Source of the DNA: Candidatus Melainabacteria bacterium
Lineage (GTDB): Bacteria; Cyanobacteriota; Vampirovibrionia; Gastranaerophilales; Gastranaerophilaceae
Reading direction: 5' to 3'
DNA length: 64,000 nt
Assembly (NCBI GenBank): GCA_003258725.1
Contig: QHMG01000005.1
Span: 47,152-111,151 of the forward strand
Shown here: positions 33,257 to 63,991 of the stretch, piece by piece
Layout of the letters: every line of letters begins with the position of its first letter
How positions within the stretch are numbered: position 1 is the stretch's first letter
Notes under the pieces: generated by a model
Told to the model about the DNA's origin: nothing
The model's database searches: none
Seen by the model: only the letters and a program-made list of their open reading frames with translations
Position numbers and translations under genes: made by a program

Positions 33257-33283
33257 TGTAATTTTATGTCATCCTGAACTTGT
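33257..33283 (+). repeat. Intergenic palindromic element, copy (ATGTCATCCTGAACTTGTTTCAGGATC)
   Basis: Member of the ATGTCAYNCTGAAYTNNTTTCAGNRTC family. A partial copy (TGTCATGCTGAAAC) lies in reverse orientation at about 33392-33408. Confidence 0.6.
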
Positions 33284-33423
33284 TTCAGGATCTTTCTAAC
33301 CTAACGCACTATCGGAAGATTGATAAGATGCTGAATAACTACGTCTTATTTGTAACGCATACATTAAAAGTTTCAGCATGACAAGGAAAAACATAAAAGG
33401 AAGGTGTAACTATAAGCTACTTT

Positions 33424-35334
33424 TTAACCTGCTTTTCTTAGTTCAACTTCAATAAGTTTCACGAATTCGCTTACAAGTGTTGAGTTCCATTTTTTGTTTG
33501 CATCAGCCTTAATTACATCAAGTGCTTCATAAGGTGAAAGAGCTTTTCTGTAAATTCTTGGCTCTGTCAAGGCAAAATATGCGTCAATAATCAAGATAAT
33601 TTGTGATGACAACGGAATATCATTTCCAGCCAATTTGTTTGGATATCCCGAACCGTCCCAATTTTCGTGGTGTTTTTCAATAATTGGGATAATATCTTTT
33701 ACGTTTGAAATCGGTTCTAACAAGTCGTGAGCAGCCAAACGAGGGTGGTTTTCAATATAAGCACGTTCCTCATCTGTCAAAGGTCCGTCTTTTTGCAAAA
33801 TTTCTTGAGGCAACATCAAGTTTCCTACGTCATACAACAACATTGCTACACGAAGTTTATCGGCATCATCTTTTTCAAGTTCAAAACGTCTTGCAAGAGT
33901 TGTCGCCATAATAACTTTTGATTTTGATGAACCAAGTGTATGCAATGGGTTATAAGTTGTTGCAAGTGTGTCTGCAACTGAATATAAAGTGTCTTTTGGA
34001 TTTGAATTTTGTTCAATTGCCATTTGTAATTTTTTTGTTAAATCTTGCTTAACTTCGTCTGAAATGTTAATTCTGCCAGTTGCAAGAATGTCGTTAAAGG
34101 CATTAAGTGCAACCTCTTGCCATGAAACCTCTGAAATCGGAGTGGCAAGCGTAACTTGGTTTCTGCCGTTACGTTTTGAATGATACATAGCTTGGTCAGC
34201 AAGCTCCATCAATTCTTCCACGTTGTTTGCGTGTTCTAAGAAGGTTGCAACACCTAAACTTGCGGTAATTGTACCGACAGTTTCAATCGGAGTTGCTTCA
34301 ATCGCTTTTCTGATACGTTCTGCGGCAATCATTGCACCCTTTGAATCAATACCAGGAAGAAGAACATCAAATTCTTCACCACCAATACGGGCTGGAACGT
34401 CGATAGAACGAGCGTTTTGTTTTAGTACGCTTGCAATTTGTTTAATCGCCAAATCGCCGTAAACGTGTCCATACTTATCGTTTATTTGTTTCAAGTGGTC
34501 TAAGTCAATACCGATAATTGAAAACGGTTGTTTTTGACGATTCGCACGAGTAAATTCTTTTTCAATAGAATCTTCAAAATAACGACGGTTATACAAGGTT
34601 GTCAATGGGTCTGTAACCGCTTGTTCTCTAACCATTTGGAACAAGTCTGCAATTGTGATTGCAAGTTCAATTTGTTGAGCAAAAATGTTCAAGAAATCTA
34701 ATTCCGCTTCAGTTGCCTCAAGTCGTTGAGATAAAACAATTAGGATACCAAAATGGTTCATTTTTGAAAGTGGTACTAACATAAATGAACGACAAGAGGT
34801 TTCGCTAAGAATTTCTTCAACCTTGTCTTCTGTCAAGTCTGGTGCGATAGAATTTAAGCCTGCTCGTAAATCTGTACTTTGTAGAATTTCTTTGTTTCTC
34901 AAAACAGCCTTGATAATTGAGGCTTGCTCGAAATTCATACGTTGAGTGTTTATCGGAGTTTCAAGATGTTGGTTAATTTCGTCAAAAAGATTTCCGTTTG
35001 AACTTGCCATAACGGTAAAATATTCGCCGTTTTCGTCGTTACGACGTTGTAAAATGCAAGAGTGCAAATAACCTAATTCACCTTGAAGGTTGTTTACTGT
35101 TGTGTCGAGGATACTTGAAAGAGGTTTTGATGAATTCATCATTTCCCAAATGTGTTGCAACGTCAACATACGACGGTTAGCTTCATTCAACTCGTTTGTA
35201 CGTTCTTCAATTTCCTGTTCAAGTTGTGCGTTACGTTCATAGATTTCTAAAAAATCTTTTTTACCGCTATATAAGTGGTTTTCTATTTCGCTAACTTGGT
35301 TTGTGAATTCTTTAAATTTGTCAAAAATACCCAT
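33424..35334 (-). CDS. GAF-GGDEF-HD-GYP c-di-GMP turnover protein
   Basis: RIGGEEF GGDEF signature. C-terminal HD-GYP (HHENWDGSGYP). N-terminal coiled coil plus a GAF-like region. Confidence 0.85.
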   Translation of the reverse strand: MGIFDKFKEFTNQVSEIENHLYSGKKDFLEIYERNAQLEQEIEERTNELNEANRRMLTLQHIWEMMNSSKPLSSILDTTVNNLQGELGYLHSCILQRRNDENGEYFTVMASSNGNLFDEINQHLETPINTQRMNFEQASIIKAVLRNKEILQSTDLRAGLNSIAPDLTEDKVEEILSETSCRSFMLVPLSKMNHFGILIVLSQRLEATEAELDFLNIFAQQIELAITIADLFQMVREQAVTDPLTTLYNRRYFEDSIEKEFTRANRQKQPFSIIGIDLDHLKQINDKYGHVYGDLAIKQIASVLKQNARSIDVPARIGGEEFDVLLPGIDSKGAMIAAERIRKAIEATPIETVGTITASLGVATFLEHANNVEELMELADQAMYHSKRNGRNQVTLATPISEVSWQEVALNAFNDILATGRINISDEVKQDLTKKLQMAIEQNSNPKDTLYSVADTLATTYNPLHTLGSSKSKVIMATTLARRFELEKDDADKLRVAMLLYDVGNLMLPQEILQKDGPLTDEERAYIENHPRLAAHDLLEPISNVKDIIPIIEKHHENWDGSGYPNKLAGNDIPLSSQIILIIDAYFALTEPRIYRKALSPYEALDVIKADANKKWNSTLVSEFVKLIEVELRKAG

Positions 35335-35532
35335 AGATTGCCCTCGATATTGTTTCTAAATTATACAACATTTCTTTAAATCCGTAAAATATTTGGTTAA
35401 GTTTGTTTAAATTTTTATGACTTTTTAAAATTTATCATTAAATAAATCATACAGAAATATGAAATTTCAATAAGAGTGTTCATTAAAACGATGTCTATAT
35501 TGTAAAATGTAATTGGAGCGAGGATATATAAA

Positions 35533-37122
35533 TTGTTTGAATCATTAAGAGTTGGTCCACAACTTACACCTAAAAATAATCAAATAATTAAGCGCAACGA
35601 GGACGAGGAAGCTAAAAAGAAAGCAAACGAAGCCGAAGGCGAAGCGAAACAAGGTTCTAACCTTGCTCAAAGTCGTGGCTTGAAATACGTTGAGGATTTA
35701 CAAAACGGTAAACACCCGCATAATCCGAACGTCGGCGGAAATAATTACGCTTATAACAATCAAGTTCAAAATGCGCAAATGGCTCGCCCTATGGCAAGAC
35801 CAATGCAACGCCCTATGAATAATCAAATGGGTGTTGGTATGAACCGTCCAATGGGCGCAGGTCAAATGGCTGGCGCAAGACCAATGGGCGGAGTTCAACA
35901 ACCTGTTCAAGCACAAGGTGCTCAACAAACTCAAGGTGTTTCAAGCTCGTCAGGCAAAATGATTAGCCCTAAAATCAATATTGCTCAAGTAATAGGTGAT
36001 TTTAAAAATACAGCCAAAGCTATTGGAACTCCAGAAGATATTTACGAAGAAGTTGATACTTATCTAGGTTTAGTCGAAAAAACTACTAAAAAAGACACTC
36101 CAAATGTTAAAGCTGTTCAATCAAATTTGCGTAACGCCGCAGGACTTTTGGATAAATATATTTCAGACACTTTAAATAAAGATTCAAAAGTAGTTGAAAA
36201 TTGGGTTGAAGCAATTTTCTTGCAACAAGTTGATTACAAATACAATACAGAAGATGTAAACGAAGCATTTTTAGTTAAAATGCCAGAAGATAACAAAAAA
36301 GCTGAAGGCGCAGAACAAACTCAACCTCAACCTCAACAAGCGCAAAAGGTTGAACCTCAAAAGCCTAAAATGGATAGTGAATTGAAACAACTATTTAAAG
36401 ACGGTAAATCTGCCTCAAAGGCTAAAGACAGCGTTACAGCCCTATCAACTTTCCAAAGAGCAATTAATCGCTCAATTGAACTTGGTGACACTGAATCTCA
36501 AGCAAAAATTACTTTTGAAGTGGCTCAAGTTTACGATTACGATGACGATTTGCCAAGAGCTTTAGAAAATTACAACAAGGCGATTGAAACAACAACAGAC
36601 AACAACGTAAAAGTTAAAGCACACTACTCAATGGCGCAAATTTACGACGATGTAAAACAATTTAAACCCGCAATTGAACACTATATGGCTGCAATTTCTT
36701 TTGCAGGTGAAACTGATAACTTTAAAGCTCAAACTCAATCTTTGACAAAAATCGGAAACATGTATTCAGATAAATATGACAAAGAAGCGTTTAATGTTTA
36801 TGAAGATGCAAAAGTAGTTGCAGAAGAAAGCAAAGACGCATCAGTAAAAGGTTATGTTTCAAGTTCAATCGCAAATGCTTACAATAAATTTAACAAGCCA
36901 GAAAAAGCTATGCGTTACTATTCTGATGCAGTTAAAAACTACAAACAAGCTGGTTCTGATGAAAAAGTTGCTATAAATTATAAAAAAGCAGGCGAATTAA
37001 TGCAGGATTACCAAAGAATGGATAAAGGCAAAAACTTAATTCAAAAAGCTATTCAATACGCTAAAAAAGCAAATAACGAAAATCTTGTAAAAGAATTAGA
37101 AAAAGATTTGCAAGTGGCTTAA
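35533..37122 (+). CDS. Hypothetical protein with an in-frame RPM tandem-repeat region and C-terminal TPR-like repeats
   Basis: TTG start with GAGGA RBS. 12-nt tandem repeats encode MARPMARPMQRPM... Q/P-rich linkers. TPR-like C-terminus. Confidence 0.5.
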   Translation: MFESLRVGPQLTPKNNQIIKRNEDEEAKKKANEAEGEAKQGSNLAQSRGLKYVEDLQNGKHPHNPNVGGNNYAYNNQVQNAQMARPMARPMQRPMNNQMGVGMNRPMGAGQMAGARPMGGVQQPVQAQGAQQTQGVSSSSGKMISPKINIAQVIGDFKNTAKAIGTPEDIYEEVDTYLGLVEKTTKKDTPNVKAVQSNLRNAAGLLDKYISDTLNKDSKVVENWVEAIFLQQVDYKYNTEDVNEAFLVKMPEDNKKAEGAEQTQPQPQQAQKVEPQKPKMDSELKQLFKDGKSASKAKDSVTALSTFQRAINRSIELGDTESQAKITFEVAQVYDYDDDLPRALENYNKAIETTTDNNVKVKAHYSMAQIYDDVKQFKPAIEHYMAAISFAGETDNFKAQTQSLTKIGNMYSDKYDKEAFNVYEDAKVVAEESKDASVKGYVSSSIANAYNKFNKPEKAMRYYSDAVKNYKQAGSDEKVAINYKKAGELMQDYQRMDKGKNLIQKAIQYAKKANNENLVKELEKDLQVA

Positions 37123-37163
37123 TTAGTTTATAAAAAGTTCAAAATAACATAAAATACGCAGAA

Positions 37164-37197
37164 AAACAAACTCTCACATTCTTTGAGAGTTTGTTTT
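37164..37197. terminator. Bidirectional terminator (35533..37122 gene / rpsO)
   Basis: AAACAAACTCTCA CATTCTT TGAGAGTTTGTTTT. Confidence 0.75.
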
Positions 37198-37224
37198 CAG
37201 TTTTATAAACCTTGCGCTTAGAAA

Positions 37225-37494
37225 TTAGCCACGTAATTTTAGTTTTTTAACTAAAGCTCTGTAACCGTCTAAGTTGATATCTTTTAAGTATGCTAATAAT
37301 CTTTTTCTTTTACCTACCATCATTAACAAACCACGTTTTGTAGAGAAATCTTTTTTGTTCAATTTCATGTGTTCTGTTAAATCAGTGATTTTTTTGCTAA
37401 GCATAGCGATTTGAACTTCTGCTGAGCCTGTGTCTTTTTCATTAGCACCGAATTTTTTAACAATTTCTTTTTTGTTTTCTAAGTTAATTGACAT
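37225..37494 (-). CDS. rpsO: 30S ribosomal protein S15
   Basis: 89 aa with the canonical S15 sequence (LSKKITDLTEHMKLNKKDFSTKRGLLMMVGKRKRLLAYL). Confidence 0.9.
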   Translation of the reverse strand: MSINLENKKEIVKKFGANEKDTGSAEVQIAMLSKKITDLTEHMKLNKKDFSTKRGLLMMVGKRKRLLAYLKDINLDGYRALVKKLKLRG

Positions 37495-37600
37495 ATTCCG
37501 ACTTTCCTTTATTTCTAAAAAATCTGTTTCTTAAGTCTATGATAGTATGTCAAGAAAAAAAATCAATATCTAATTTTACGCATGTAACAAAATTTGAAGA

Positions 37601-37984
37601 TTAAGCTAAGTCTAAAATGTTAATTCTGCTAGCTTTGTTTGCGTTATTAGCGTGGAATAAGAATAAATCTAATTGTAAATCTTTTTTGTTTCTGCAAGTT
37701 GTGAATTCTTTTTTAGCTAATTTGAATTCTTTTTCTTTTTGTTCGTATTTAGCATCAGTTTTGTCAACGCTGTTGAATTTAGCTTGTTCCATAATGAATA
37801 CTGATGTTGCTTTGTTGTATGCTTTTAATTGTTCTTTATATTTTGCTTCGTAAATGCTTGCTGTTTCGTTTAATTCTGCACGTCTAGCTTCTTGTTCTTC
37901 TTTCATCTTAGCAATTTTAGCTTCGCCAGGGTTTTCCTTCTTTGCGAATGGATTTGAAGCGTATGATGAAAATTCTAAAGCCAT
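37601..37984 (-). CDS. Hypothetical helical protein
   Basis: 127-aa Lys/Glu-rich helical ORF with no recognised domain. Confidence 0.35.
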   Translation of the reverse strand: MALEFSSYASNPFAKKENPGEAKIAKMKEEQEARRAELNETASIYEAKYKEQLKAYNKATSVFIMEQAKFNSVDKTDAKYEQKEKEFKLAKKEFTTCRNKKDLQLDLFLFHANNANKASRINILDLA

Positions 37985-38036
37985 TTTAATTAATCCTCTT
38001 TACTCTCTGTATATATATAAAGTATTTTTGTGTTAG

Positions 38037-38195
38037 AAAATTGCCAATGTAGTGTTCATGCGGGTTTGAACTATTCGGGTTGTCGGCAGAGTAACGTCTG
38101 ACCGACAACTTACGGGTTGAGTTCGCTTACGCTCACACGGCACCCTACCGAAAGTTCAAAAATTGCCTTTTTAGTATTTATGCGGGTTTGAACTA
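38037..38195. repeat. Intergenic module: about 37-bp direct repeats (AAAATTGCCnnTnTAGTnTTnATGCGGGTTTGAACTA) flanking a GC-rich hairpin
   Basis: Copies at 38037-38073 and 38159-38195. Hairpin GGTTGTCGGCAGA GTAACG TCTGACCGACAAC at 38079-38112. Contains a GAGTTCGCTTACG segment also found near 47565. Confidence 0.45.
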
Positions 38196-38214
38196 ATTTA
38201 TCAAAAGAGATTCT

Positions 38215-38283
38215 GAAACAAGTTCAGAATGACATAAGATTGAATGCTTAACTTTATGTCACCCTGAATTTATTTCAGGGTCT
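38215..38283. repeat. Two copies of the intergenic palindromic element (one reverse partial, one forward)
   Basis: 38215-38234 GAAACAAGTTCAGAATGACAT (reverse). 38255-38283 ATGTCACCCTGAATTTATTTCAGGGTCTC (forward). Confidence 0.55.
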
Positions 38284-38328
38284 CTTATTAAAATATCTGT
38301 TAAATTTTATTCATGTTAAAATAGGTGT

Positions 38329-39615
38329 ATGATTAATCGTTATTGTTTAGATAAAATGAAACAAATTTGGGAGATGCAATCCAAGTTTGAATATTATTTA
38401 AAGGTAGAGCTTGCCGTATGCGAGGCTTATGCTCAAATGGGCGAAATTCCACTTGATGCGCTAGAACAAATTAAGCGTGATGCAAAATTCGACCTAAAGC
38501 GTATCGACGAGATTGAAGCAGAAGTTCATCATGATGTAATTGCGTTTTTAACTTGTGTAAACGAAGGTTTAGGTGAAAATGCTAAATACATGCACAAAGG
38601 TTTAACAAGTTCAGATGTAATTGATACAGCTTACGCACTTCAAATTAAAGACGCCTCACAAATCATTTCAGATGATTTAGTAAAAGTTATAGTAACTTTG
38701 AAAACAATGGCTAAAAAGTATAAAGATACTGTTTGTATTGGTCGTTCTCACGGAATTCATGCAGAGGTTACAACATTTGGTATCAAACTCTTGAATTGGG
38801 TAGATTCTTTAGAAAGAGCTTACAAAAACTTTTTGATTGCAGCAGAAGATATTGAAATGGGGCAAATTTCAGGGCCTGTTGGAACGTATAGCAACGTACC
38901 AATGGAGGTTGAAACACTTACTTGCGAAATTTTAGGGCTAAAGTCAGCTAGAATCTCGACTCAAGTTATATCAAGAGATGTGTATGCAAGATATATGAAC
39001 GAATTGGCTATGATTGCAACAATTGTAGAGCAATTTGCAACAGAGATTAGAAACTTGCAACGTACAGAAATTTTTGAGGTTCAAGAAGGTTTTTCCTCTC
39101 ATCAGAAGGGTTCTTCAGCAATGCCTCACAAGCGAAACCCTGTTTTATGCGAAAACTTATGCGGGCTTGCAAGAGTTGTTAGAGGTAACGCTACAACTGA
39201 AATGCAAAATGTTGTTTTATGGCATGAAAGAGACATTTCTCATAGTTCAGCGGAGCGTATAATATTCCCAGATAGCACAATTTTGGTGGATTTTATTTTA
39301 AATAGATTTAATTCTGTTTTAGAAAACTTGGTTGTCTATGAAAAAAATATGGAGCGTAACACAAAACTTTATGGCGGAGTTGTGTTCTCTCAAAAAGTTA
39401 TGCTAAAACTTACCGAAAAAGGTTTATCACGTGAAGAAGCGTACGAAATTGTTCAAAAAAATGCACTTAAAGCAATTGATGAGAATGGTGATTTTGAACA
39501 AAATCTTCTTATTGATGAAAGAGTTACATCAAAATTAACACCTGCTGAAATAGCGGAATGTTTTGATGTCTCAACATATTTAAAAAATGTAGATGCGATA
39601 TTTGCAAAATTTTAA
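38329..39615 (+). CDS. purB: Adenylosuccinate lyase
   Basis: Fumarate lyase family. SSAMPHKRNP signature. 428 aa. Confidence 0.9.
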   Translation: MINRYCLDKMKQIWEMQSKFEYYLKVELAVCEAYAQMGEIPLDALEQIKRDAKFDLKRIDEIEAEVHHDVIAFLTCVNEGLGENAKYMHKGLTSSDVIDTAYALQIKDASQIISDDLVKVIVTLKTMAKKYKDTVCIGRSHGIHAEVTTFGIKLLNWVDSLERAYKNFLIAAEDIEMGQISGPVGTYSNVPMEVETLTCEILGLKSARISTQVISRDVYARYMNELAMIATIVEQFATEIRNLQRTEIFEVQEGFSSHQKGSSAMPHKRNPVLCENLCGLARVVRGNATTEMQNVVLWHERDISHSSAERIIFPDSTILVDFILNRFNSVLENLVVYEKNMERNTKLYGGVVFSQKVMLKLTEKGLSREEAYEIVQKNALKAIDENGDFEQNLLIDERVTSKLTPAEIAECFDVSTYLKNVDAIFAKF

Positions 39616-39667
39616 ATATGTACTAAAATATATAAATACACGAGTTAAATATAGGTACTGATATAAA

Positions 39668-41860: not shown

Positions 41861-42359
41861 TATTTTTAGCGAAAATATATACGAAGGTTGGCAAGTTGAC
41901 GAGGCTAAGCTAATCACAATTGGACGTAAAATCTTAGAATATTACATGTTAAGACCTGACATTTACGAGGGGTCTTGTTTAAAACCTCATATTTACGATA
42001 CAATTTCCTTCGATATTTTGTATTGTGATGGGGCTAAAACTCACGAAATAAACAGGGAATATCGTGATAAAGATTATGTTGCAGACATTATTACTTTTGC
42101 AATTTTTGCTGACACCCCTGTTGAAGAAAGAATTGTTTTTGACGGTGAAATCAATCTTGGTGAAATAATTTTAGCGCTGGATAAAATAACTCAAAGTGCC
42201 AAAGAAAAAGGGGTTACAAAGGAAGAAGAACTTTGCTTCTTGCTTGCACACGGAATAATGCACTTGTTGGGTTATGATCATCAAACAGAAGAAGATTATA
42301 ATTTTGTTGTGGCGGCTCAAAAAATGGCTTTAAACAAGATAAAGGATAAAAATGTCTAA
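41841..42359 (+). CDS. ybeY: rRNA maturation endoribonuclease YbeY
   Basis: HGIMHLLGYDH zinc motif. Confidence 0.9.
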   Translation: MTKPTINIFSENIYEGWQVDEAKLITIGRKILEYYMLRPDIYEGSCLKPHIYDTISFDILYCDGAKTHEINREYRDKDYVADIITFAIFADTPVEERIVFDGEINLGEIILALDKITQSAKEKGVTKEEELCFLLAHGIMHLLGYDHQTEEDYNFVVAAQKMALNKIKDKNV

Positions 42360-43666: not shown

Positions 43667-43672
43667 AATTTC

Positions 43673-47471: not shown

Positions 47472-47474
47472 GTT

Positions 47475-47503
47475 ATGTCACCCTTAATTTATTTTAGGGT
47501 CTC
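47475..47503 (+). repeat. Intergenic palindromic element copy (ATGTCACCCTTAATTTATTTTAGGGTCTC), 4 nt after the TPR gene stop
   Basis: Stem ACCCTTAA/TTAGGGT with compensatory changes relative to other copies. Confidence 0.55.
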
Positions 47504-47509
47504 TGCAGT

Positions 47510-47577
47510 ATGAGATGCTGTTACACGTGGGACAGGCTCACAAGGCTTAGGCTTCGCCAGTTCGCTTAGTCAATACA
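47510..47577. repeat. About 60-bp GC-rich repeat shared in inverted orientation with 63073..63130
   Basis: About 52/58 identity to the reverse complement of 63073-63130. Followed by a partial palindromic-element copy (GCTCAGCATGACAG). Confidence 0.5.
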
Positions 47578-47623
47578 AGCTCAGCATGACAGAAGATTAA
47601 GTAACACACAAAGGTTTTTATTT

Positions 47624-52582: not shown

Positions 52583-53905
52583 CTAAGAACTGAATGTTTT
52601 GAAGGTTGCTTCGACGTTCTTTTGAATAACGCTCTTTACTGCCTCCATTTCTGTTGAAAGAGCTTTTTGTTCGGTATCAAGTTGCTTCAATCTCAATTCT
52701 AGGGTTCTGTCTTGAACTTGAATTTTTGATGTCTTAGCGTTGATATCTGCTAATTCTTTTTCATAAGCTAAAATATCATAATTATATTGATTCATTGCAT
52801 CATCGTAAGAAGCTGTGTCTGTTGTTTCTTCTGATTTAAGCGCAAAAGATTCACTTGAACTCATAAGTTTAATATTCTTATATCTGCCTGTGCCTGATTT
52901 GTCGTCAAGTCTTGCGTATTCTTGTCTTGTAATATCTTCTTTTTTATGTGTTGCGTAGTATTGATTTAAGTTCTTTTGGTAATCAATTGCTGAAGAAATT
53001 TGATATTTGTCATTTACAGGTGGTTGGTTTGCCAAACCACTTACAATACAATCATTCAATTCAGATTCTGTCGCATAGCAAGTTCTGCCATTCTTTTGAT
53101 ATACCCAAATTTCATTAGGGTTAACGCCTGCTAATTCAGGGAAGTCGTGAATGATTTGGTCATAATCTGCCTTTTGAACTGGGTCAGTCAAATCAAGTCT
53201 TTCAGCATCAGAGTTACCAAGTTTGTAGCTGTAATCCTTGTCTGATACACCATAAACAGGTAAGTCACCTTCTTTGGTTGCAGTTTTATCAATGTTTTCT
53301 AAGTCTTCTTTTTTTGCGTAAATAGCTGGATCTTTTGTCCCATCTGCTTTGTAGAAGTCTTTGATATCATCAATAGTAATCAAACCCTTGCTTTGTAATG
53401 CTTTTAAGTTATCCAAATCTTCTGCTGTACATTCTTTGAATTGTGCAGATGTACCAGCTTGGTCTGTTACGGTGTAAGATTTGTTTGTAGTGTCTTTTAC
53501 AACTTTAACGTTTTGTTCGATACCGTTGTTTGTGTTGTAATTTGTAACTTTTTGAACTTGAGGGTTAGTGTTCTTTTGTTGAATTGCTTTAAACACCTCT
53601 TGGTTGTAGTGGTAAGTTACTTGATAATTATATTTTTCACCTGTTTCAGGATCTGTATAATCAACGTTTTGGTAGCTGTCAATTTCATAGTCGTTAAACC
53701 CATCAGTGAAGGCATATTGTTGAGTTGTGTAATCTGTTGTTTTTGGAGCGGTAGGCACTTGAAGTGCTAACATTCTGTTCCATAGGTTTGCAGATTGGTT
53801 TGCAAGCGCTGTACGTGCTTGGTTAATTTGTTGACCTTCGTATTCAGTGTTTGTTTTTCTGGCAGTAAGACCTAAGTATCTTGCCTGTGAAGCAGCCATA
53901 CCCAT
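52583..53905 (-). CDS. Novel-family protein A (about 440 aa; conserved helical N- and C-termini, divergent core; no signal peptide)
   Basis: Paralog of 59577..60893. The shared start MGMAASQARYLGLTARKTN is preceded by GGAGA-N7. The track ORF extends 27 codons further upstream (to 53986), but the paralog and RBS support a start at 53905. Confidence 0.6.
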   Translation of the reverse strand: MGMAASQARYLGLTARKTNTEYEGQQINQARTALANQSANLWNRMLALQVPTAPKTTDYTTQQYAFTDGFNDYEIDSYQNVDYTDPETGEKYNYQVTYHYNQEVFKAIQQKNTNPQVQKVTNYNTNNGIEQNVKVVKDTTNKSYTVTDQAGTSAQFKECTAEDLDNLKALQSKGLITIDDIKDFYKADGTKDPAIYAKKEDLENIDKTATKEGDLPVYGVSDKDYSYKLGNSDAERLDLTDPVQKADYDQIIHDFPELAGVNPNEIWVYQKNGRTCYATESELNDCIVSGLANQPPVNDKYQISSAIDYQKNLNQYYATHKKEDITRQEYARLDDKSGTGRYKNIKLMSSSESFALKSEETTDTASYDDAMNQYNYDILAYEKELADINAKTSKIQVQDRTLELRLKQLDTEQKALSTEMEAVKSVIQKNVEATFKTFSS

Positions 53906-54059
53906 AAGCGTATCTCCTCTTCTGTGTCCATTTAATCTTATGTAAATGATTATAATAATATTTTTTCGAAAATCAACATTTTCCATGAAATATCAATTGT
54001 TTGGACTATAAAATTTTGCTCAAATCCTCTATTTAGACGTAAATAAGCTCTTTGAATTT

Positions 54060-54233: not shown

Positions 54234-54331
54234 GTCGTTTTCTCCTTTTTAACTTGTAAGTTATTTAACGACAAAAAACGGCTGAACTTTAGTAAATTCA
54301 ACCGTTTTGCTTATAAATTATTGTTCAAATT

Positions 54332-54670: not shown

Positions 54671-54768
54671 ATTCCTTTTTCTAAAATAATAAACTTTTTT
54701 TTAAGAAAGGTCAACTATTTTTCAAGATGTAAAAAAAATGGTAAAATGTAAAAATAGGTTAGTTATAA

Positions 54769-56754: not shown

Positions 56755-57535
56755 ACCTATTGCTGTTTTTGATTCGGGCGTAGGCGGATTAACAGTATAT
56801 AAAAAATTAAAAGAACTTTTGCCAAACGAAGATTATATTTATTTTGGCGATTTAAAAAATTGTCCTTACGGTCAAAAATCAAAACAGCAATTAATTGATT
56901 TAACAGCAGATATCTTCAATTATTTTAAATACGAAGATGTTAAGGCGGTTGTTATGGCTTGTAACACAACCTCTGCAAATGTTTACGATGAATACAACAA
57001 TAAATTTGATTATACACTTTATCCTATAATTCAATCTTGTGCAAAAATTATTTCACAATTACCAATTGAACGATTAGGAGTGTTTGCAACCTCTGCAACA
57101 ATTTCATCTGGGGCTTACAAAAGAGAAATTAACAAGTACAACTCAAATGTCAAAGTGTTTGAAATGTCTTGTCCAGGCTGGGTTCAAATTGTAGAAGGTA
57201 ACAAGCAAAATGATGAATTGAGTATTGAGTTAATTAAAGAAAATATGGATAAAATGCTTGAAAACAATCCTGACAAAATTCTTTTAGGTTGTACTCACTA
57301 TCCATTTTTGTTAGATGTTTTATCAACATTTGCGCCTCGTGATATGTTTATTGACCCAGCAGAATATTTTGCAAATTACATAAAAGAAGATTTACAAAGT
57401 CGTGATTTACTCAATGAAAATGGCGGGCATGAAAGATTTTATGTAAGCGCTAATCCAAATGAATTTAAAGTTGCTGCAAGAATGTTCTATGATTTGCACG
57501 AAGAACCTCAATTGATGAATTTTGCAAGAGCATAA
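56717..57535 (+). CDS. murI: Glutamate racemase
   Basis: IAVFDSGVGGLTV and GCTHYP motifs. The 5' end overlaps the amidase gene. Confidence 0.85.
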   Translation: MVSSTTTSNNKNKPIAVFDSGVGGLTVYKKLKELLPNEDYIYFGDLKNCPYGQKSKQQLIDLTADIFNYFKYEDVKAVVMACNTTSANVYDEYNNKFDYTLYPIIQSCAKIISQLPIERLGVFATSATISSGAYKREINKYNSNVKVFEMSCPGWVQIVEGNKQNDELSIELIKENMDKMLENNPDKILLGCTHYPFLLDVLSTFAPRDMFIDPAEYFANYIKEDLQSRDLLNENGGHERFYVSANPNEFKVAARMFYDLHEEPQLMNFARA

Positions 57536-57542
57536 TTACTAA

Positions 57543-57571
57543 AGAGCTTAGCATTTTTAATGCTAAGCTCT
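57543..57571. terminator. Stem-loop between murI and the convergent fadD-like gene
   Basis: AGAGCTTAGCAT TTTTA ATGCTAAGCTCT 12-bp stem. The T-run is weak. Confidence 0.5.
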
Positions 57572-57592
57572 ACATTTTTCTATAAATTCTTT

Positions 57593-59275
57593 CTATAAAT
57601 TCAATAACTGTTTAACTTCTCTACGTTTAACTTTTCTTGTTGTTGTTTTTGGAAGTTCTTTCTTGTAAACGATGATGTTAATTGGTCGTTTATAAGGTGC
57701 TAAATGCGCAGACAAGTGTTTAACTTCTTCTCTTACAATTTTGTTTAATTCTTCATCTGATTTGTCAGCCATATAGCTTTCTTTTGGAACAATTACAGCT
57801 ACGATTTCTTCTGTACCGTCTTTTGTACCACCAGAACGAGATGAACCCATTACACAAACTTCTGCAAAGTTGTTGCTAGATTCAAGAACAGCTTCAACTT
57901 CTTCCGGAAATACTTTTTTACCACCAGAAAGTACAATCATGTTCTTAATTCTGCCTGTAATGTGAATGTGTCCGTCTTTATCTAAATGACCGATATCTCC
58001 TGTATGCAACCAGCCATCTTCGTCAATAGTTTCAGCTGTAAGCTCTGGTTGATTATGATATCCCTTCATTACTGAAGGACCTTTTAATTGAATTTCGCCT
58101 GTTTCTTTGTCAATTCTACATTCAAAACCTGGAAGTGGTTTACCAACTGAAGTATAGTCTTTACGTTTATCGTAGTTTACTGATACAACAGGGCTAGTTT
58201 CTGATAAGCCATAACCTGCATAAACTTTGATACCAATTGTTTCAAAGAAGTTTGCAACATTTTTGTCAATTGGTGCGCCACCAGAAATGCAACCTCTGAA
58301 TTGACCGCCAAAGTTATCATGGATTTTCTTGAAAATCATCTTCTTAATTCTGAATGAAGGAATGAATTTTGCTATATTAAACATGATAGGGAAAACTTTT
58401 TTAGCAATAGGGTTATTGTGAATTTCGTTTTCAATACCAGCTTTCAATAATTTTAAGAAGGCTGGAACAACTACCATGAATTGAACTTGTTTTTCTCTCA
58501 TAATCATCAAAATGTCTTTTGGTTTTAATGATTGAGTGTAATAAACTGATGTTCCTAACAACAAGAAGGTTGAGAAACCAACGGTTAATTCAAACAAGTG
58601 ATTCATAGGTAAGATTGATAAAATTTTTGTATTTTCACCTGCAGGAATAAATTCTGGAACAACTGTGCTAAGAGCGTTTAGTTGTGCAAGCATGTTTCTA
58701 AATGAAATTTCAACGCCTTTAGGATTACCTGTTGTGCCTGAAGTGTAGATGATGAAAGCTGTTGATTTTGAGCTTCTGTGTCTCCATTTGCAGTGAGGTG
58801 TTGAATTTATTGTGTATAAACTTGGAAGTGTCATGTTGTAGCTTGGTTCGTCCATAACGATAATGTGTTTGATTGACGGAACTTCCTTTTGTATTTCTAA
58901 TGCTTTTTCAATGTAAGTTTGTGAAACTAATAAAACTTTTGGCTGGCAATCTGTAAGGATTGAAACAAGTTCAAACTTTGTCAATTTTATATCAAGTGGA
59001 ACTGTTGTTGCGCCTGAAAGAATTGATGCAAAAACGCAAGCGCCGTATTCTGGCTTTGATTCAGATAGAATAGCAACTCTATCATTTTTTTGAACTTCTA
59101 ATTCGTTGATAAGGTAGCTGCCTAATTTTCTTGATAAAAGCCCTAAACCTTTGTATGTAAATTCTTTCCAACCTAAAGCTGTTCTAATACCTAATGCAAC
59201 TCTATCTCCGTATACATCAGTTTTTTCTTCTAACAAAAGAAGAACATTGTTTTTTCTGTATTTCATCTTCCTCAC
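57593..59275 (-). CDS. Long-chain-fatty-acid--CoA ligase (AMP-dependent synthetase family)
   Basis: YTSGTTGNPKGV AMP-binding motif. 560 aa. Confidence 0.8.
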   Translation of the reverse strand: MRKMKYRKNNVLLLLEEKTDVYGDRVALGIRTALGWKEFTYKGLGLLSRKLGSYLINELEVQKNDRVAILSESKPEYGACVFASILSGATTVPLDIKLTKFELVSILTDCQPKVLLVSQTYIEKALEIQKEVPSIKHIIVMDEPSYNMTLPSLYTINSTPHCKWRHRSSKSTAFIIYTSGTTGNPKGVEISFRNMLAQLNALSTVVPEFIPAGENTKILSILPMNHLFELTVGFSTFLLLGTSVYYTQSLKPKDILMIMREKQVQFMVVVPAFLKLLKAGIENEIHNNPIAKKVFPIMFNIAKFIPSFRIKKMIFKKIHDNFGGQFRGCISGGAPIDKNVANFFETIGIKVYAGYGLSETSPVVSVNYDKRKDYTSVGKPLPGFECRIDKETGEIQLKGPSVMKGYHNQPELTAETIDEDGWLHTGDIGHLDKDGHIHITGRIKNMIVLSGGKKVFPEEVEAVLESSNNFAEVCVMGSSRSGGTKDGTEEIVAVIVPKESYMADKSDEELNKIVREEVKHLSAHLAPYKRPINIIVYKKELPKTTTRKVKRREVKQLLNL

Positions 59276-59576
59276 CTATTTATAAGTATTCTTCCATTAA
59301 GAATGTCCTAGTATTATAAACTAAATGAAGTAGCAATGTCAATTTTACTATACATGTAATAATAATATACATGTATGAAATTTTAATATTTGTATACATT
59401 ATAAGGGGGATTTTTGTCATTATTTAATGTAAAAAAATGTAAACATACCGTATAATAACCATGATTATAGTTGACTTTTAGCCAACAGTCATTAAAGACA
59501 AAAAGAAAGTATAAATAGTCGAAATACGAGAGAAAAAGAAGAAAGTAGTTATACAAAAAGATAGGAGAAACCGCTT

Positions 59577-60893
59577 ATGGGTATGGCAGCATCACAGGCA
59601 AGATACTTAGGTCTTACCGCAAGAAAAACAAACGTTGAATATGAAGGTCAACAAATTAACCAAGCTCGTACTGCATTAGGTAACCAATCAGCTACTTTGT
59701 GGAATCAAATGTTAAGTTTGTCAATTCCGACATGTCCTAACACTACTGATTACACAACTGTACAATACTCATTCAGTGATGGTTACAACAAGTACACAAT
59801 TTCTAACGTTCAGTCAGTTGAAAAAGAAATTGACGGCGTTAAGTACAACAAACAAATTACTTATTACTACAATCAAGACACATTCAAGGGTATTCAATCT
59901 AAGAACACTAACCCTCAAGCTCAAAAAATTGATGATTGGTCTGCAACAGTTAATACAGACAATATTGAAGTTATTGATGACGGTGCTGGCGGAGTTAAAT
60001 ACGCTTTGGCAGGTGACAATACAATTGAAGTAACAAGAAATACTGTTGATACAAAATCAGCAGAGTACACAGCTTATTTGAAGGCTAACAAGCTAGATAA
60101 ATTAGATGATGGCGAAGAATTGTATTCATTCAAATATACTGACGCTGACGGCAAAGAACAAACAGTTTACCAACGTGGTAACGATATTGTTAACTTAGAT
60201 GCCGGAAATGTTGGTAAAAAAATGAGTTCAGCAACATTGGCTAACAATCCGTCTTACATGGTTGGTAATTCAAAAGCAACATTATATGATCCAAACGATA
60301 AAGAACAATTAGCAGCTTATGAACAATTAAAACAAGACTTCCCAGAACAAGATTTTGATGCGGATCAAGTTTATGTTTATAAGAAAACAGGCAACCAAAT
60401 GTTCTTTGCTAAGAAATCGGACTTAGATGCTTGTATTGCAAGTGGTCAAGTTGATGTAAAAGATGACAGATTCCAAATTTCATCTCAAATTGATTACCAA
60501 GCTCCATTGAATCAATACTATGCAACAACAATTTCTCAAAAAGTTGAAAACACAGATTACGCAATTATGGACGATTTCTCTGGCTCTGGTCGTTTTTCAA
60601 ATGTAAAATTAAGCACAATGAGTGATACATTTGAAGTTCAATCAGAAGAAATTACTGATGAAAAAGCTTATAATGATGCGATGAATCAATACAACTATGA
60701 TGTTACAAAATACGAAAAATCAATGGCTGATATCAACGCAAAAACATCTGTAATTCAAGAACAAGATAGACAACTTGAATTGAGATTGAAACAGTTAGAA
60801 ACAGAACAAAAAGCGCTTTCAACTGAAATGGACGCTGTTAAAGGTATTATTTCTAAGAATGTTGAATCAACATTCAAAACATTCTCATCATAG
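59577..60893 (+). CDS. Novel-family protein B (438 aa), paralog of 52583..53905
   Basis: Collinear with A. The N-terminal 50 aa and C-terminal about 70 aa are near-identical and the core is divergent. RBS GGAGA-N7-ATG. A roughly 300-bp AT-rich leader lies upstream. Confidence 0.6.
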   Translation: MGMAASQARYLGLTARKTNVEYEGQQINQARTALGNQSATLWNQMLSLSIPTCPNTTDYTTVQYSFSDGYNKYTISNVQSVEKEIDGVKYNKQITYYYNQDTFKGIQSKNTNPQAQKIDDWSATVNTDNIEVIDDGAGGVKYALAGDNTIEVTRNTVDTKSAEYTAYLKANKLDKLDDGEELYSFKYTDADGKEQTVYQRGNDIVNLDAGNVGKKMSSATLANNPSYMVGNSKATLYDPNDKEQLAAYEQLKQDFPEQDFDADQVYVYKKTGNQMFFAKKSDLDACIASGQVDVKDDRFQISSQIDYQAPLNQYYATTISQKVENTDYAIMDDFSGSGRFSNVKLSTMSDTFEVQSEEITDEKAYNDAMNQYNYDVTKYEKSMADINAKTSVIQEQDRQLELRLKQLETEQKALSTEMDAVKGIISKNVESTFKTFSS

Positions 60894-60916
60894 TAAACGA
60901 CTTAATAAGCTTAGAA

Positions 60917-60976
60917 GTGCGTTGCGTTACATATATAAACGCACTTCTAGAGCGGATAGTAGTAACTTATGTAACG
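60917..60976 (+). promoter_or_regulatory. Stem-loop / alternative-pairing element between family B and the downstream Gly-rich gene (putative attenuator)
   Basis: TAGAAGTGCGTT-loop-AACGCACTTCTA 12-bp stem with no T-run. TGCGTTACAT / ATGTAACGCA offers alternative pairing. Confidence 0.4.
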
Positions 60977-61005
60977 CACAACCCCTTAAAACGAGGTAAA
61001 CAATT

Positions 61006-61854
61006 ATGTCATATAAAAATGATAGTTTATTAGTTATAGCAAACAAATTCGGTGCAGCATCAGGCGATGCAAAAGTTCAGTTATACGAAACTTATGACCG
61101 ATTAAGAGACTTGACAGTATCAGGCTCAGCAAGTTCTGGTACAGGTTTTGAGTTGGCTGGTGGTGCGTTGTATAAAGTTGCAAGTTTGTTTGCACCATCG
61201 TCATTTATGACAACATTGGGAGGTACACAATCCTTTAATATCCCTGGTACATCATACTGGTCACCGATTACAGGTTCAACTGCACAAGTTAATGGTACAA
61301 CATCTGCCTTCGGTATTGGTAATTTGGGGAGTTATTCAGGATTCCCAAATGGTGCAGCAGGATTATCCCTAAGTGGATTTGCAACAGGTGGCGCATCATC
61401 AATTACGGATACTTTAAGCGGTTTCGGTACATCAAGTGGTGTTGTAACAGGTGGTGCGTCATCAATTGGTGCAATTGCCGATGTTGCAAGTGCAACAGCT
61501 TACGGTGTTGGTACTGCAAATGGTTACGGTATTGGTCTGCAAAACGTAGTAATGCCTGTAGCTGGTATTTTATCAGGTTGGGGCGGTATCATGACTGCTG
61601 CTGCTCCTTACTTGGGTGAATATGGTTTGCCTGCAATCGTTATGGGTAACTTGATGCAAGGTACTTCATCAGCTGCCTTATCAGCTTATCAAAGTGTATC
61701 TTCAAACATTTTGGCTAATGCTGATACAATCCTTTCTAACAAGGTTAGAAATATTGAAACTGTATGTAAAATGCTTGATACACAAGGTGAAATTGTTAGA
61801 AAAATGTTAAAAGAAGGTATGGATTCTGACTCAAAGGCAATCCAAAACTTATAG
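61006..61854 (+). CDS. Gly/Ser/Thr-rich protein without signal peptide
   Basis: 282 aa. G/S/T/A-rich low-complexity core with a helical C-terminus. Follows family B. Confidence 0.45.
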   Translation: MSYKNDSLLVIANKFGAASGDAKVQLYETYDRLRDLTVSGSASSGTGFELAGGALYKVASLFAPSSFMTTLGGTQSFNIPGTSYWSPITGSTAQVNGTTSAFGIGNLGSYSGFPNGAAGLSLSGFATGGASSITDTLSGFGTSSGVVTGGASSIGAIADVASATAYGVGTANGYGIGLQNVVMPVAGILSGWGGIMTAAAPYLGEYGLPAIVMGNLMQGTSSAALSAYQSVSSNILANADTILSNKVRNIETVCKMLDTQGEIVRKMLKEGMDSDSKAIQNL

Positions 61855-62193
61855 TTGAAGAAATTCGGTAATGGAAACACGTACATATTTAAGAGTAATA
61901 ATTTACAAACTATTTGTAAATAACGTATTTATAAAGATTTTGACCTCTATTGTAAATTTTTATTACAATTTGTGGAGTTTTTTGCCTGCAAAGCTAAAGT
62001 TTAAGAAATCTATGCCGATAACATATTCGGATATGAAGAGAAACATCGTTTTCTTGAGTATCACGGGTGATAAGATAGACTGTACATGATTAAGACATGT
62101 TACAAACTTTTCAAATCATGCTAAAACATAGGCAATTATTGGAAAGAACATGTTTTTAAATATGTGAAGGTCAATCTATAAAGTTAAAAAGGA

Positions 62194-62478
62194 GTGAACG
62201 ATATGTTCCAATCAGAAACTTTACAGACTAACTTCAAAAGACTTATGAACTTCTTTGCTTATACAAGGAACTATTTCGCAAGAAATAATCCTATAAAGGC
62301 AATGACAGACGATATAGTTAATGCGTTAAAAGAGGCTTTAACAGTACGTAAAAAGTTAAAAATGGCGCAATACAGACTAAATTATCATAAGTATCAATTC
62401 AACCGTATGGAAGCCTTGATTGCAGAAAACAATCAACACAACTTCTTGAAAGGCAAGAACTTAAACGAAACCAGATAA
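62194..62478 (+). CDS. Small helical hypothetical protein
   Basis: 94 aa. AGGAG RBS. Confidence 0.35.
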   Translation: MNDMFQSETLQTNFKRLMNFFAYTRNYFARNNPIKAMTDDIVNALKEALTVRKKLKMAQYRLNYHKYQFNRMEALIAENNQHNFLKGKNLNETR

Positions 62479-62490
62479 AGGGATAAAACA

Positions 62491-62817
62491 ATGGGTTTAC
62501 TTACAGCTTCAATGAGAATGTTCACTTTGAACTCACAAAGATTGGATTTGGAATACAAAATTCAACTTGTTTCTCAAGCTAAAGCGGATTTGACAGTGCA
62601 AGATGCACAATTGATTAACGCAGGTACAGACTTGAGTGCTGATAGTCCTGTTCTTAAGCAATTAGAGGCAAGAAAAGAAAGATTACATTTGTTGGAAAAG
62701 AAATTAGATCAGCAAATGATGCAATATCAATCTCAGTTGAAAATGGTTGAAACCGAATTGAAATCTTGTCAGAACCAATTTGATAAGAATGTTGCAACCT
62801 CTTGCGGTTACCAATAG
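62491..62817 (+). CDS. Short member (108 aa) of the novel family: N-terminal motif plus coiled coil only
   Basis: MGLLTASMRMFTLNSQRLDLEYKIQLVSQAK aligns with MGMAASQARYLGLTARKTNVEYEGQQINQAR of A and B. The rest is a predicted coiled coil. Confidence 0.45.
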   Translation: MGLLTASMRMFTLNSQRLDLEYKIQLVSQAKADLTVQDAQLINAGTDLSADSPVLKQLEARKERLHLLEKKLDQQMMQYQSQLKMVETELKSCQNQFDKNVATSCGYQ

Positions 62818-62825
62818 AAAGATTT

Positions 62826-62866
62826 AAAAAAAATGGCGCTTGTCCATAGGACAAGCGCCATTTTTT
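62826..62866 (+). terminator. Rho-independent terminator
   Basis: TGGCGCTTGTCC ATAG GACAAGCGCCA followed by TTTTTT. Confidence 0.8.
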
Positions 62867-62960
62867 CATGCTTGCCTTAATTGACAAAGGTCTAAAAATA
62901 CGATAAAATGGTATATTATAGCAATAAGATGAGAGGAGAAATAATTAACAATAGAATACA

Positions 62961-63069
62961 ATGTCATGCTGAACTCGTTTCAGCATCTCGAGATTATCCA
63001 GACCCTGAACTAAATTCAGGGTGACATCAGAATTGAATATAAAATCTTATGTCATTCTGAACTTGTTTG
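62961..63069. repeat. Cluster of three palindromic-element copies in alternating orientation
   Basis: 62961-62987 ATGTCATGCTGAACTCGTTTCAGCATC (+). 63001-63027 GACCCTGAACTAAATTCAGGGTGACAT (-). 63049-63069 ATGTCATTCTGAACTTGTTTG (+, degenerate). Confidence 0.6.
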
Positions 63070-63072
63070 ACA

Positions 63073-63130
63073 AAGCGAACAGGCGAAGTATGAGCCTTGT
63101 GAGCCTGTCCCCCGTGTGACAGCATCTCAT
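63073..63130. repeat. About 58-bp GC-rich repeat, inverted copy of 47510..47567
   Basis: AAGCGAACAGGCGAAGTATGAGCCTTGTGAGCCTGTCCCCCGTGTGACAGCATCTCAT. Reverse complement about 90% identical to the 47.5 kb copy. Confidence 0.5.
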
Positions 63131-63202
63131 GTTTTAAAATCTAAAACAAAAATATTTACTAAATAAAATAGCCGTGATAAAATGAAGAAAAAGAGGTGAA
63201 AT

Positions 63203-63991
63203 ATGATTAGAAAATTAAAACAAATTTTTAATATACAAAACGAATGTCGTTCTGAACTTGTGGCAGAAACGCATAAAAGATACCGCAACATATTGCAAGC
63301 CTTCACTCTTGCTGAAGTACTAGTTGTAATCGGTATTATTGGTGTTGTATCAGCGCTAACTATTCCAAATTTGCAACAAGGTACAAATTCAAAAGAAGTA
63401 ATTACAAAGGTAACAAAAGCAAAAGCAACAATTGACGAGGCTTATGGTCGTGCTATTGCGACTTATGGTGATCCTTGCCTTTGGACAAAAGGTCAAACAA
63501 CGGCAGCTGCTCAAGCTGCGGTTTGGTATAACCGTATATTTGAAAATTTAAAAGTGGATAAAGATTGTGGACTTGTGGATAATACTAATAGGACTTGTTG
63601 GGATTCAACTTCAAATTTTGGCAATACTTACTATAAAGTTAAATTAGCTGATGGAACATCAATGGCAATGAGTGCAAATACAGGTGTTATTGCATTGGGA
63701 TATAACTGTGGAAGTTATGGCGTTGCATATAGTTTTTCTATTGATATTGATGGACCAAACAAAGGTTCTGGAAATGATTGTGATGATATATACACATTAA
63801 GTTATAATGTAACATCTTTTCTTGGTGATTATTCTGGAAATCTTAAAAAGAACTCAGCCGATTGTGCTGCTTGGGTATTGGATAAAGGCAATGCTGATTT
63901 CTTAAAGGCAACTGCAACTGGTGCAAATACTAGCTTCCAATGTCCAAATGGTAAATACTTAAATTGGTCTAACAACACAACTTGTAACTAA
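63203..63991 (+). CDS. Prepilin-type N-terminal cleavage/methylation domain protein (type IV pilin-like), second copy
   Basis: FTLAEVLVVIGIIGVVSALTIPNL. The track ORF N-terminus (63203-63292) encodes MIRKLKQIFNIQNECRSELVAETHKR and contains a palindromic-element copy at 63244-63270. The likely true start is TTG at 63293 (MQA|FTLAE). Confidence 0.7.
   Translation: MIRKLKQIFNIQNECRSELVAETHKRYRNILQAFTLAEVLVVIGIIGVVSALTIPNLQQGTNSKEVITKVTKAKATIDEAYGRAIATYGDPCLWTKGQTTAAAQAAVWYNRIFENLKVDKDCGLVDNTNRTCWDSTSNFGNTYYKVKLADGTSMAMSANTGVIALGYNCGSYGVAYSFSIDIDGPNKGSGNDCDDIYTLSYNVTSFLGDYSGNLKKNSADCAAWVLDKGNADFLKATATGANTSFQCPNGKYLNWSNNTTCN

Follow-up and report, generated by a model that had tools for sequence, protein, structure and literature searches.

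What are the short palindromic sequences that recur between genes in a 64,000-nucleotide (nt) stretch of Candidatus Melainabacteria DNA (contig QHMG01000005.1; hereafter the window, meaning this whole stretch), and what acts on them? An earlier note on this DNA had described a family of about 27-bp hairpins, likened it to repetitive extragenic palindromic (REP) sequences or miniature inverted-repeat transposable elements (MITEs), and suggested that it doubles as terminators or mRNA stabilisers, with a possible REP-associated tyrosine transposase (RAYT) or IS200/IS605 partner. We consider it very likely that the elements belong to the CGTC/TGTC-tagged REP superfamily of oriented DNA hairpins, a class named NTS in Neisseria and, more broadly, Ssn-related motifs (SRM), and that an Ssn-type nuclease recognises them. 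Judged by sequence, the window copies are CGTC-2 REPs, and thus a new host and an AT-rich subtype of a known system, not a new kind of element. Both the element class (2013) and its partner enzyme (2025) have already been published; the window would add to the known range of the Ssn/SRM system a lineage of uncultured low-GC human-gut bacteria and an AT-rich subtype, which is the commonest type beside Ssn genes in the environmental loci examined here.

We scanned the whole window with the consensus of the earlier note, allowing up to three mismatches, with 100 dinucleotide-preserving shuffles as control. Six sites matched (33266+, 38235−, 38256+, 47475+, 62961+ and 63027−) compared with none in the shuffles (0/100), and a covariance model built on 74 distinct hairpins from unrelated metagenome loci recovered exactly the same six (E 8e-10 to 2e-4), confirming that the family is real. 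A looser scan added two degenerate copies, 63049+ and 63244+, as well as minus-strand matches to the tag plus left arm at 33372-33383 and 47580-47591. Besides the six intact copies, three with expanded loops are present in the window. The copies are as follows.

33266..33293, plus strand: intact TGTC-tagged hairpin, ATGTC ATCCTGAA CTTGT TTCAGGAT CT (46.8 bits, E 7.6e-10)
33327..33384, minus strand: expanded-loop copy, TGTC ATGCTGAA, a ~35-nt loop, then TTCAGCAT C; the outer arms pair (z -2.0)
38208..38235, minus strand: intact hairpin with ATTC stem (44.9 bits)
38256..38283, plus strand: intact hairpin with ACCC stem and TTTAT loop (41.5 bits), in the divergent spacer upstream of purB
47475..47502, plus strand: hairpin with a T·T mismatch, ACCCTTAA/TTTAGGGT (26.2 bits, E 2e-4)
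47510..47592, minus strand: long variant, tag and ATGCTG arm, ~50-nt GC-rich insert, CAGCAT arm; right half of a tags-outward, head-to-head (HH) dimer
62961..62988, plus strand: intact hairpin with ATGC stem and CTCGT loop (44.4 bits); left half of an HH heterodimer
63000..63027, minus strand: intact hairpin with ACCC stem (32.4 bits); right half of the same HH heterodimer, after a 13-nt spacer
63049..63132, plus strand: long variant, tag and left arm, ~50-nt GC-rich insert, right arm (GACAGCATCTC)
63244..63271, plus strand: degenerate copy (10.6 bits) within the leader-coding part of a pilin-like open reading frame (ORF), 63203-63991

In all, about 11 copies occupy four spacers of the 64 kb, and only 63244 is not intergenic. 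The covariance model found no match within bases 1-33000, an emptiness that is not significant for four clusters (p ~1/16). A search of Rfam, at the gathering threshold and at E <= 5, returned no family at any copy, and a literal search of the literature for the element sequence gave no match.

The total of six full copies given earlier stands, with a different membership: 63244 drops out, having four mismatches and a broken stem, and 38215, previously listed as a half-copy, is a full and perfect minus-strand copy (38209-38235). Two starting points also shift, from 33257 to 33266 (off by 9) and from 38255 to 38256 (off by 1). The remaining fragments resolve into larger elements. What had been reported separately as a degenerate copy at 63049 and a half-copy at 63120 are the two ends of one element, 63049-63132, split by an insert of ~50 nt; the supposed half-copy at 47572 is a minus-strand long element of the same structure (47510-47592); and that at 33392 is really 33371-33383, the tag end of the minus-strand copy with the ~35-nt loop (33327-33384).

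All six intact copies carry TGTC immediately 5' of the stem. Each unit is composed of an unpaired (A)TGTC tag, an 8-bp stem (A[T/C][C/T/G]C[T/C]GAA), a 5-nt loop (CTTGT, TTTAT), the complementary arm and C-T; the first stem pair is A·T in every copy and the second is T·A or C·G. In tag, stem and loop this anatomy matches that of the CGTC-tagged REPs, which have a 5' tag CGTC, 'changed to TGTC ... in many repeats' (Di Nocera, De Gregorio & Rocco 2013, BMC Genomics 14:522), with TGTC and CCTC as tag variants, a stem of 8-9 bp starting from A·T, a loop of 4-5 nt and a short tail of consensus CCA (Di Nocera 2013). HH dimers predominate among them, and heterodimers occur in CGTC-2, where they prevail, and in CGTC-3; the superfamily takes in Neisseria dRS3 and Rickettsia RPE-4 and RPE-6, and has no associated transposase (Di Nocera 2013).

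The likeness is closest to CGTC-2, with which the window elements share the TGTC tag, the 8-bp stem that begins with A·T, the 5-nt loop, HH heterodimers and some intragenic units. A Sulfurovum CGTC-2 unit inside a gene encodes RHSELVSGS (Di Nocera 2013 supplementary table), which is the translation of CGTCATTCTGAACTTGTTTCAGGATC, the same sequence as in the window copies. Because the published features and the Sulfurovum sequence agree, we assign the window elements to CGTC-2. They differ from it in their host, an uncultured low-GC human-gut clade outside the 2013 survey, in some stems, which begin with AC and not AT, and in the short 3' tail, where the conserved C after the stem is followed by T and then C/T, not by the CA of the published CCA. 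Rickettsia RPE-4 (CGTC-4) and RPE-6 (CGTC-1) belong to the same superfamily and can likewise sit in frame inside genes, but have other stem and loop sequences and another host. With NTS, dRS3 and SRM, the window copies have in common an oriented intergenic hairpin with GTC before the palindrome and C after it.

To learn how widely the element occurs, we searched one bacterial or archaeal genome per species for the 27-mer, with any base allowed at four stem positions. At least 119 loci matched, spread over at least 15 phyla, so that the REP is not specific to one genome. Host groups among the matches listed are Bacteroidota, Gastranaerophilales/Melainabacteria/'Cyanobacteria' metagenome-assembled genomes (MAGs), Patescibacteria, Spirochaetota, Nitrospirota, Planctomycetota, Alpha- and Gammaproteobacteria, Desulfobacterota, Bacillota, Elusimicrobiota, Caldisericota, Ignavibacteriota, Calditrichota, Dependentiae and Rhodothermota. 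Where hairpins lie next to each other in the 119 loci among the matches listed and in the window, 59 pairs are HH, 16 are tags-inward or tail-to-tail (TT) and 21 are head-to-tail (HT), and the two stems differ in every one of the 59 HH pairs. The window contributes HH heterodimers at 62961/63027 and 47475/47592, and a TT dimer with a 20-nt spacer made up of 38208..38235 and 38256..38283. The different-stem rule offers a simple reason for the 'compensatory' variation, namely that each hairpin folds on itself and not with its partner. At six of our loci, from Planctomycetota, Desulfobacterota and related sources (L001, L037, L071, L087, L105 and L110), the conserved motif CTGTGTCRCAAT stands ~15 nt upstream of the hairpin.

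Which enzyme, then, accompanies these hairpins? We clustered the ORFs of the 119 hairpin-selected loci among the matches listed and looked for recurrent neighbours. A protein of ~95 amino acids (aa) with a GIY-YIG domain (PF01541 only) recurs beside the hairpins at 4 of these 119 loci, in different phyla, and in all four cases hairpins stand on both sides of the gene. For an independent test, 80 metagenome loci were picked by the GIY-YIG protein alone. Hairpin density was 5.7/kb within 200 nt of the gene compared with 0.23/kb elsewhere, and 69 of the 80 loci had a hairpin no more than 200 nt away. A plus-orientation hairpin lay upstream in 56/80, a minus-orientation hairpin downstream in 57/80, and both were present in 46/80. 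Spacers adjacent to the gene contained a hairpin in 82% of cases, relative to 10% of the other spacers on the same contigs (Fisher odds ratio 41, p = 3.6e-29). The tags of the flanking hairpins usually point outward, and the two stems differed in 39 of 46 bracketing pairs. The same bracketed cassette, with GC-richer stems, is present in finished Sinorhizobium meliloti and Sphingobium genomes, and in N. gonorrhoeae NTS/dRS3 copies surround a GIY-YIG gene. Compared with the Neisseria ssnA-like ORF, the GIY-YIG set shows 42% identity and an hhalign E of 1.6e-26; its nearest solved structures are the UPF0213 proteins 1zg2 and 1ywl. Comparison of Ssn-like proteins (P0025 and P0121-P0239) gives 70-83% identity between a Cyanobacteriota MAG on one side and Ignavibacteria, Nitrospirae, Planctomycetes and Chloroflexi on the other, an identity across phyla that points to recent horizontal transfer of the cassette.

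That such hairpins go with a GIY-YIG gene had been reported before (Chenal et al. 2025, Nat Commun 16:2388), and the present analysis independently replicates that link and did not discover it. Neisseria SsnA is a 94-aa single-domain GIY-YIG protein (cd10448) that binds the NTS hairpin (CGTCATTCCCGCGMAVGCGGGAATCYRG) only as single-stranded DNA (ssDNA) and cuts a few bases upstream of it; it acts on neither double-stranded DNA nor RNA, nor on the reverse strand (PMC11893778). Cleavage depends on the trinucleotide that precedes the palindrome, and binding most of all on the C that directly follows it; changing the palindrome sequence with the fold kept abolishes activity (PMC11893778). When DNA bears NTS copies, SsnA makes transformation less efficient; 71% of ssnA homologues are accompanied by a nearby SRM and 42% by one on each side, and the NTS-ssnA-NTS layout has been likened to an insertion sequence or a REP-RAYT pair (PMC11893778). 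The positions found critical in Chenal 2025, GTC on the 5' side of the palindrome and C on its 3' side, are both conserved in the hairpins described here, and the exact hairpin subtype of the window brackets Ssn homologues in other genomes, as SRMs do.

The layout also bears on whether these might be classical REPs or REPINs mobilised by a RAYT, that is a Y1 transposase of the HUH type. The general form is shared: short tagged hairpins acting as ssDNA, inverted dimers in intergenic positions, a bracketed enzyme gene in the manner of a REPtron and, as with the Y and Z units of BIMEs, different hairpin types paired in a dimer. The tag, however, is TGTC and not GTAG, CGTC repeats flank no transposase (Di Nocera 2013), and the gene that these hairpins bracket encodes a hydrolytic GIY-YIG nuclease with no known joining activity, whereas an HUH tyrosine transposase cuts and rejoins. 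No Y1 transposase recurred in the 119 hairpin-selected loci among the matches listed, nor was one found among the 41 window ORFs compared with Pfam. We therefore regard a RAYT as a highly improbable partner, and the suggestion of RAYT or IS200/IS605 gives way to Ssn. One ssn gene (L035:7170-7660) is flanked by half-hairpins in tandem, first a series of 5' halves (TGTCATCCTGAAC repeated, the 3' arm missing) and then a series of 3' halves; these may be scars of repeated cutting and repair.

We next considered what the stems themselves reveal about the molecule in which the hairpin acts. A set of stems blind to the variable positions, comprising all sites that match GTC-N5-GAA[CT]TN[AG]TTTC-N5 in 80 unrelated metagenome loci, yielded 74 distinct sequences. 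Standard pairs filled 95.8% of the stem cells of these 74 hairpins compared with 85.3% in shuffles, none of which reached as high (0/500), and pairing fell to 35-57% when the partner column was slid by one. Three stem pairs change freely in tandem (T·A/C·G, C·G/G·C/T·A and T·A/C·G) and the other five are essentially fixed; double changes were counted at four pairs, and a ninth pair covaries as well. This ninth pair joins loop positions 1 and 4, which are C-G in 55 and T-A in 19 of the sequences and never unpaired, a perfect covariation from which we derive a structure of nine pairs, a 2-nt loop and one bulged T. Within the window, the compensatory stem variants are ATCC/GGAT, ATTC/GAAT, ATGC/GCAT and ACCC/GGGT. 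At 47475 both arms changed as well, but G to T on one and C to T on the other leave the T·T mismatch, and the change is not compensatory. Likewise, the proposal that selection acts on the hairpin and not on the sequence is half right, since the stems do covary but only three of their pairs vary and the rest are invariant.

Orientation is equally marked. The covariance model scored the tagged strand at 47 bits and its complement at 12 bits, and as ssDNA the units form 8-bp hairpins with fold z-scores of -3.9 to -5.7; the copy at 33266 has a DNA fold of -6.1 kcal/mol (z -3.9), and the ssDNA fold of the HH dimer 62961/63027 has z -4.8. The ~50-nt inserts of the long variants have no significant ssDNA structure (z -0.7 and +0.6), and the long variant 47510-47592 is 89% complementary to 63067-63130. 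The GC-rich insert (AAGCGAAC.GGCGAAG...GCCTTGTGAGCCTG), seen at 63069-63118 and 47523-47567, also occurs in a Gastranaerophilales MAG (L005:6521-6557).

These properties disfavour double-stranded palindromic operators for a dimeric DNA-binding regulator. The elements are indeed near-palindromic and lie in promoter-proximal spacers, and in several related MAGs they stand upstream of pilin-like genes. Yet the arms vary while staying complementary, which serves folding rather than base-specific contacts with a protein; tag, bulged T and 3' C make the element asymmetric; copies are also found between convergent genes and after stop codons; and the identical sequence recurs in at least 15 phyla. 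An operator role thus seems to us hardly credible.

More has to be said about a role in RNA, in which the hairpins would act mainly as intrinsic terminators or as stabilisers of 3' ends or 5' untranslated regions (UTRs). The spacers look transcribed, and the copy at 47475, the left half of its HH dimer, begins 4 nt after the stop codon of a tetratricopeptide repeat (TPR) gene. The cluster 62961-63132 stands between a promoter-like site and the pilin-like gene, and probably in the 5' UTR of the latter: the site at 62881-62909 (TTGACA, 17 nt, TAAAAT; 11/12 match), the best of the region, lies upstream of the hairpins, which would give the gene a 5' UTR of ~300-390 nt consisting largely of these repeats, so that some effect on the transcript is possible. 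One copy even passes a terminator scan (38261-38281); it sits, however, upstream of purB in a divergent spacer and not at the 3' end of a gene. A T tract is missing from all but one of the six intact copies, and canonical T-tract terminators stand upstream of copies, at 33178-33208 (from the scan) and at ~62826-62866 (by eye; the scan did not list it). The hairpin at 33266, between the convergent secA and GGDEF-HD genes, lies 58 nt beyond secA's own terminator. The terminator role proposed by the earlier note is accordingly not borne out, while the hairpin at 27854-27890 was rightly set apart as unrelated, having a CAGACC/GGTCTG stem followed by a T run and no TGTC tag, and it looks like an ordinary intrinsic terminator.

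The fold itself argues in the same direction. Copies face either way along the DNA, for the most part as inverted pairs, and base pairs of the G·U type are not favoured, G·T being no commoner than other mismatches (6 vs 25 cells). Two-base loops closed by C-G or T-A are known from DNA mini-hairpins and disfavoured in RNA, and the 2-nt loop that the ninth pair leaves therefore suits DNA. Finally, SsnA does not bind the RNA form (PMC11893778). On balance we judge a mainly RNA-level function distinctly unlikely, and take the hairpins to act as DNA, with an Ssn-type nuclease as their probable reader.

If the hairpins are read as DNA, do they also move? Proteins identical to those of the window occur on many human-gut metagenome contigs, hundreds of gut assemblies carry these genes (195-1154 index blocks), and the corresponding spacers differ between strains. 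Between the TPR gene and a 114-aa gene, a 139-nt block (47473..47611) consisting of an HH dimer, one member of which has the 50-nt insert, and a 19-nt tail (AAGATTAAGTAACACACAA) is present in the window and in eight other strains; two strains (L214 and L216) have a clean 13-nt spacer instead. Upstream of the pilin-like gene, an 88-nt block (62961..63048) made up of the 67-nt HH heterodimer and a 21-nt tail is present in the window and in one other strain (L204), and nine other strains lack it. This block is bounded by the direct repeat ATGTCAT, so that its end coincides with the tag of resident element 63049, the long variant (63049..63132) found in all 11 strains compared. Without its 50-nt insert, the 139-nt block measures ~89 nt and is thus the same kind of unit as the 88-nt block. 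Upstream of purB, a further strain (L203) lacks ~59 nt that include copy 38256. A dimer with its ~20-nt tail therefore behaves as a unit of ~88 nt that is present or absent between strains.

The comparison with REPs and MITEs made earlier can now be divided. REP-like oriented hairpins, gained or lost as discrete units, are borne out; as for MITEs, the hairpins of the HH dimer serve as inverted ends, but the two polymorphic sites show no clear target-site duplication. We also asked whether phages might be the vehicle. Among 2.9 million viral contigs there were only seven pattern matches and one Ssn relative, too few to make a phage an obvious carrier.

By analogy with the characterised relatives, we propose the following course of events. 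When DNA becomes single-stranded during replication, repair or transformation, one strand of a unit would fold into the hairpin. An Ssn protein of ~95 aa would bind it and introduce a nick in the single strand, a few bases beyond the 5' end of the tag. In genomes, units accumulate as tags-outward pairs with different stems; ssn genes are bracketed in this same layout, which resembles the two ends of an insertion sequence. In the present bacterium, gain and loss of units would be driven by an ssn gene located outside the window, whose product would also cut ssDNA that carries them, and any effects on host transcripts would be secondary.

Several observations weigh against this reading. A six-frame search of the whole 64-kb window with a GIY-YIG hidden Markov model, and comparison of 41 of its ORFs with Pfam, found no ssn/GIY-YIG gene, and the enzyme may be absent from the host. 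The window subtype is AT-rich (CTGAA arms, 5-nt loop) and falls outside the published search string for SRMs: HGTCWYN(0-2)YYVSBRHN(0-5)WNVSBRGN(0-2)RNCYNB matches nowhere in the window and none of the 132 CTGAA-type hairpins beside Ssn homologues. Since the string misses hairpins of this type, the operational definition does not cover the AT-rich subtype; the string serves as a search pattern, fitted to GC-rich variants, and does not define the elements by function. Joining DNA is beyond a hydrolytic GIY-YIG nuclease on its own. The differences between strains could be deletions, not insertions. Lastly, the stem at 47475 is mismatched and the long variants are disrupted, and some copies are probably dead.

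Taken further, these points would make the copies inert relics that entered with a since-lost Ssn cassette and are now only decaying or being deleted, with no enzyme acting on them. The lack of an ssn gene in the window fits this view, as do the degenerate or interrupted copies (47475, 63049, 63244, 33327-33384 and 47510-47592), and ~19% of SRM-rich genomes have no SsnA homologue (PMC11893778). However, the stems of five copies are perfect and a sixth copy departs by a single loop change, dimers differ between close strains whose flanking proteins are identical, which argues for recent turnover, and the strict different-stem rule (59/59 HH pairs) implies ongoing selection. We thus find the relic explanation unlikely, though less so than an RNA role, and continue to favour hairpins recognised by an Ssn-type nuclease.

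A bolder extension, which we put forward tentatively and think rather less probable than its opposite, is that the CTGAA-type dimer with its ~20-nt tail is a mobile non-autonomous element, driven in trans by Ssn through nick-and-copy without a transposase, with the cassette passing between phyla. If true, the window would provide the first population-level evidence of SRM mobility and extend the Ssn system to a subtype missed by the published pattern. Clean filled and empty sites of ~88-nt units in co-circulating strains are the type of evidence needed on whether, and by what route, a hydrolytic nuclease spreads its own target repeats. In practice, the covariance model and the tag rule make these repeats maskable and annotatable in gut metagenome assemblies, where spurious ORFs (...HPELVSGS...) can be avoided.

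The earlier claim that an element has invaded the 5' end of the pilin-like ORF is upheld: the degenerate copy at 63244 lies in the leader, which is 36-42 aa long, three other strains (L206, L207 and L210) carry there an intact hairpin with its inverted partner in frame (267 aa compared with 260-261 aa), and the differences in ORF length between strains are all multiples of three. The window has two pilin-like genes, 3962-4570 and 63203-63991 (N-terminal FTLAEVL..GIIGV), which share 74 nt at 80% identity. Homologous pilin-like genes appear in nine of the hairpin-selected loci (L004, L005, L021, L054, L056, L080, L094, L101 and L119), several of them from Gastranaerophilales MAGs, with hairpins upstream or in the leader. 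This association echoes the clustering of NTS near surface-protein genes in Neisseria. The pilin-like genes, together with repeats shared with L005 and L072, suggest a Gastranaerophilales-like affinity, and a tblastx comparison with the hairpin-selected loci gave orthologues at 60-66%, all in MAGs.

A second small element may share these spacers. A GC-rich segment of ~105 nt stands between two 42-nt direct repeats (38032-38073 and 38154-38195); it is kept between strains, with one compensatory change (CAGA/TCTG to CGGA/TCCG), and has no Rfam match. Its 45-nt core is 96% identical to part of a TGTC-hairpin loop from a Melainabacteria MAG (L072:1852-1952), and the segment resembles a further small element, one that inserts into hairpin loops. 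The window contains neither tRNA nor tmRNA genes. Elsewhere in it, two inverted paralogous genes, 52583-53986 on the minus strand and 59577-60893 on the plus strand, are 71-77% identical over several hundred bases.

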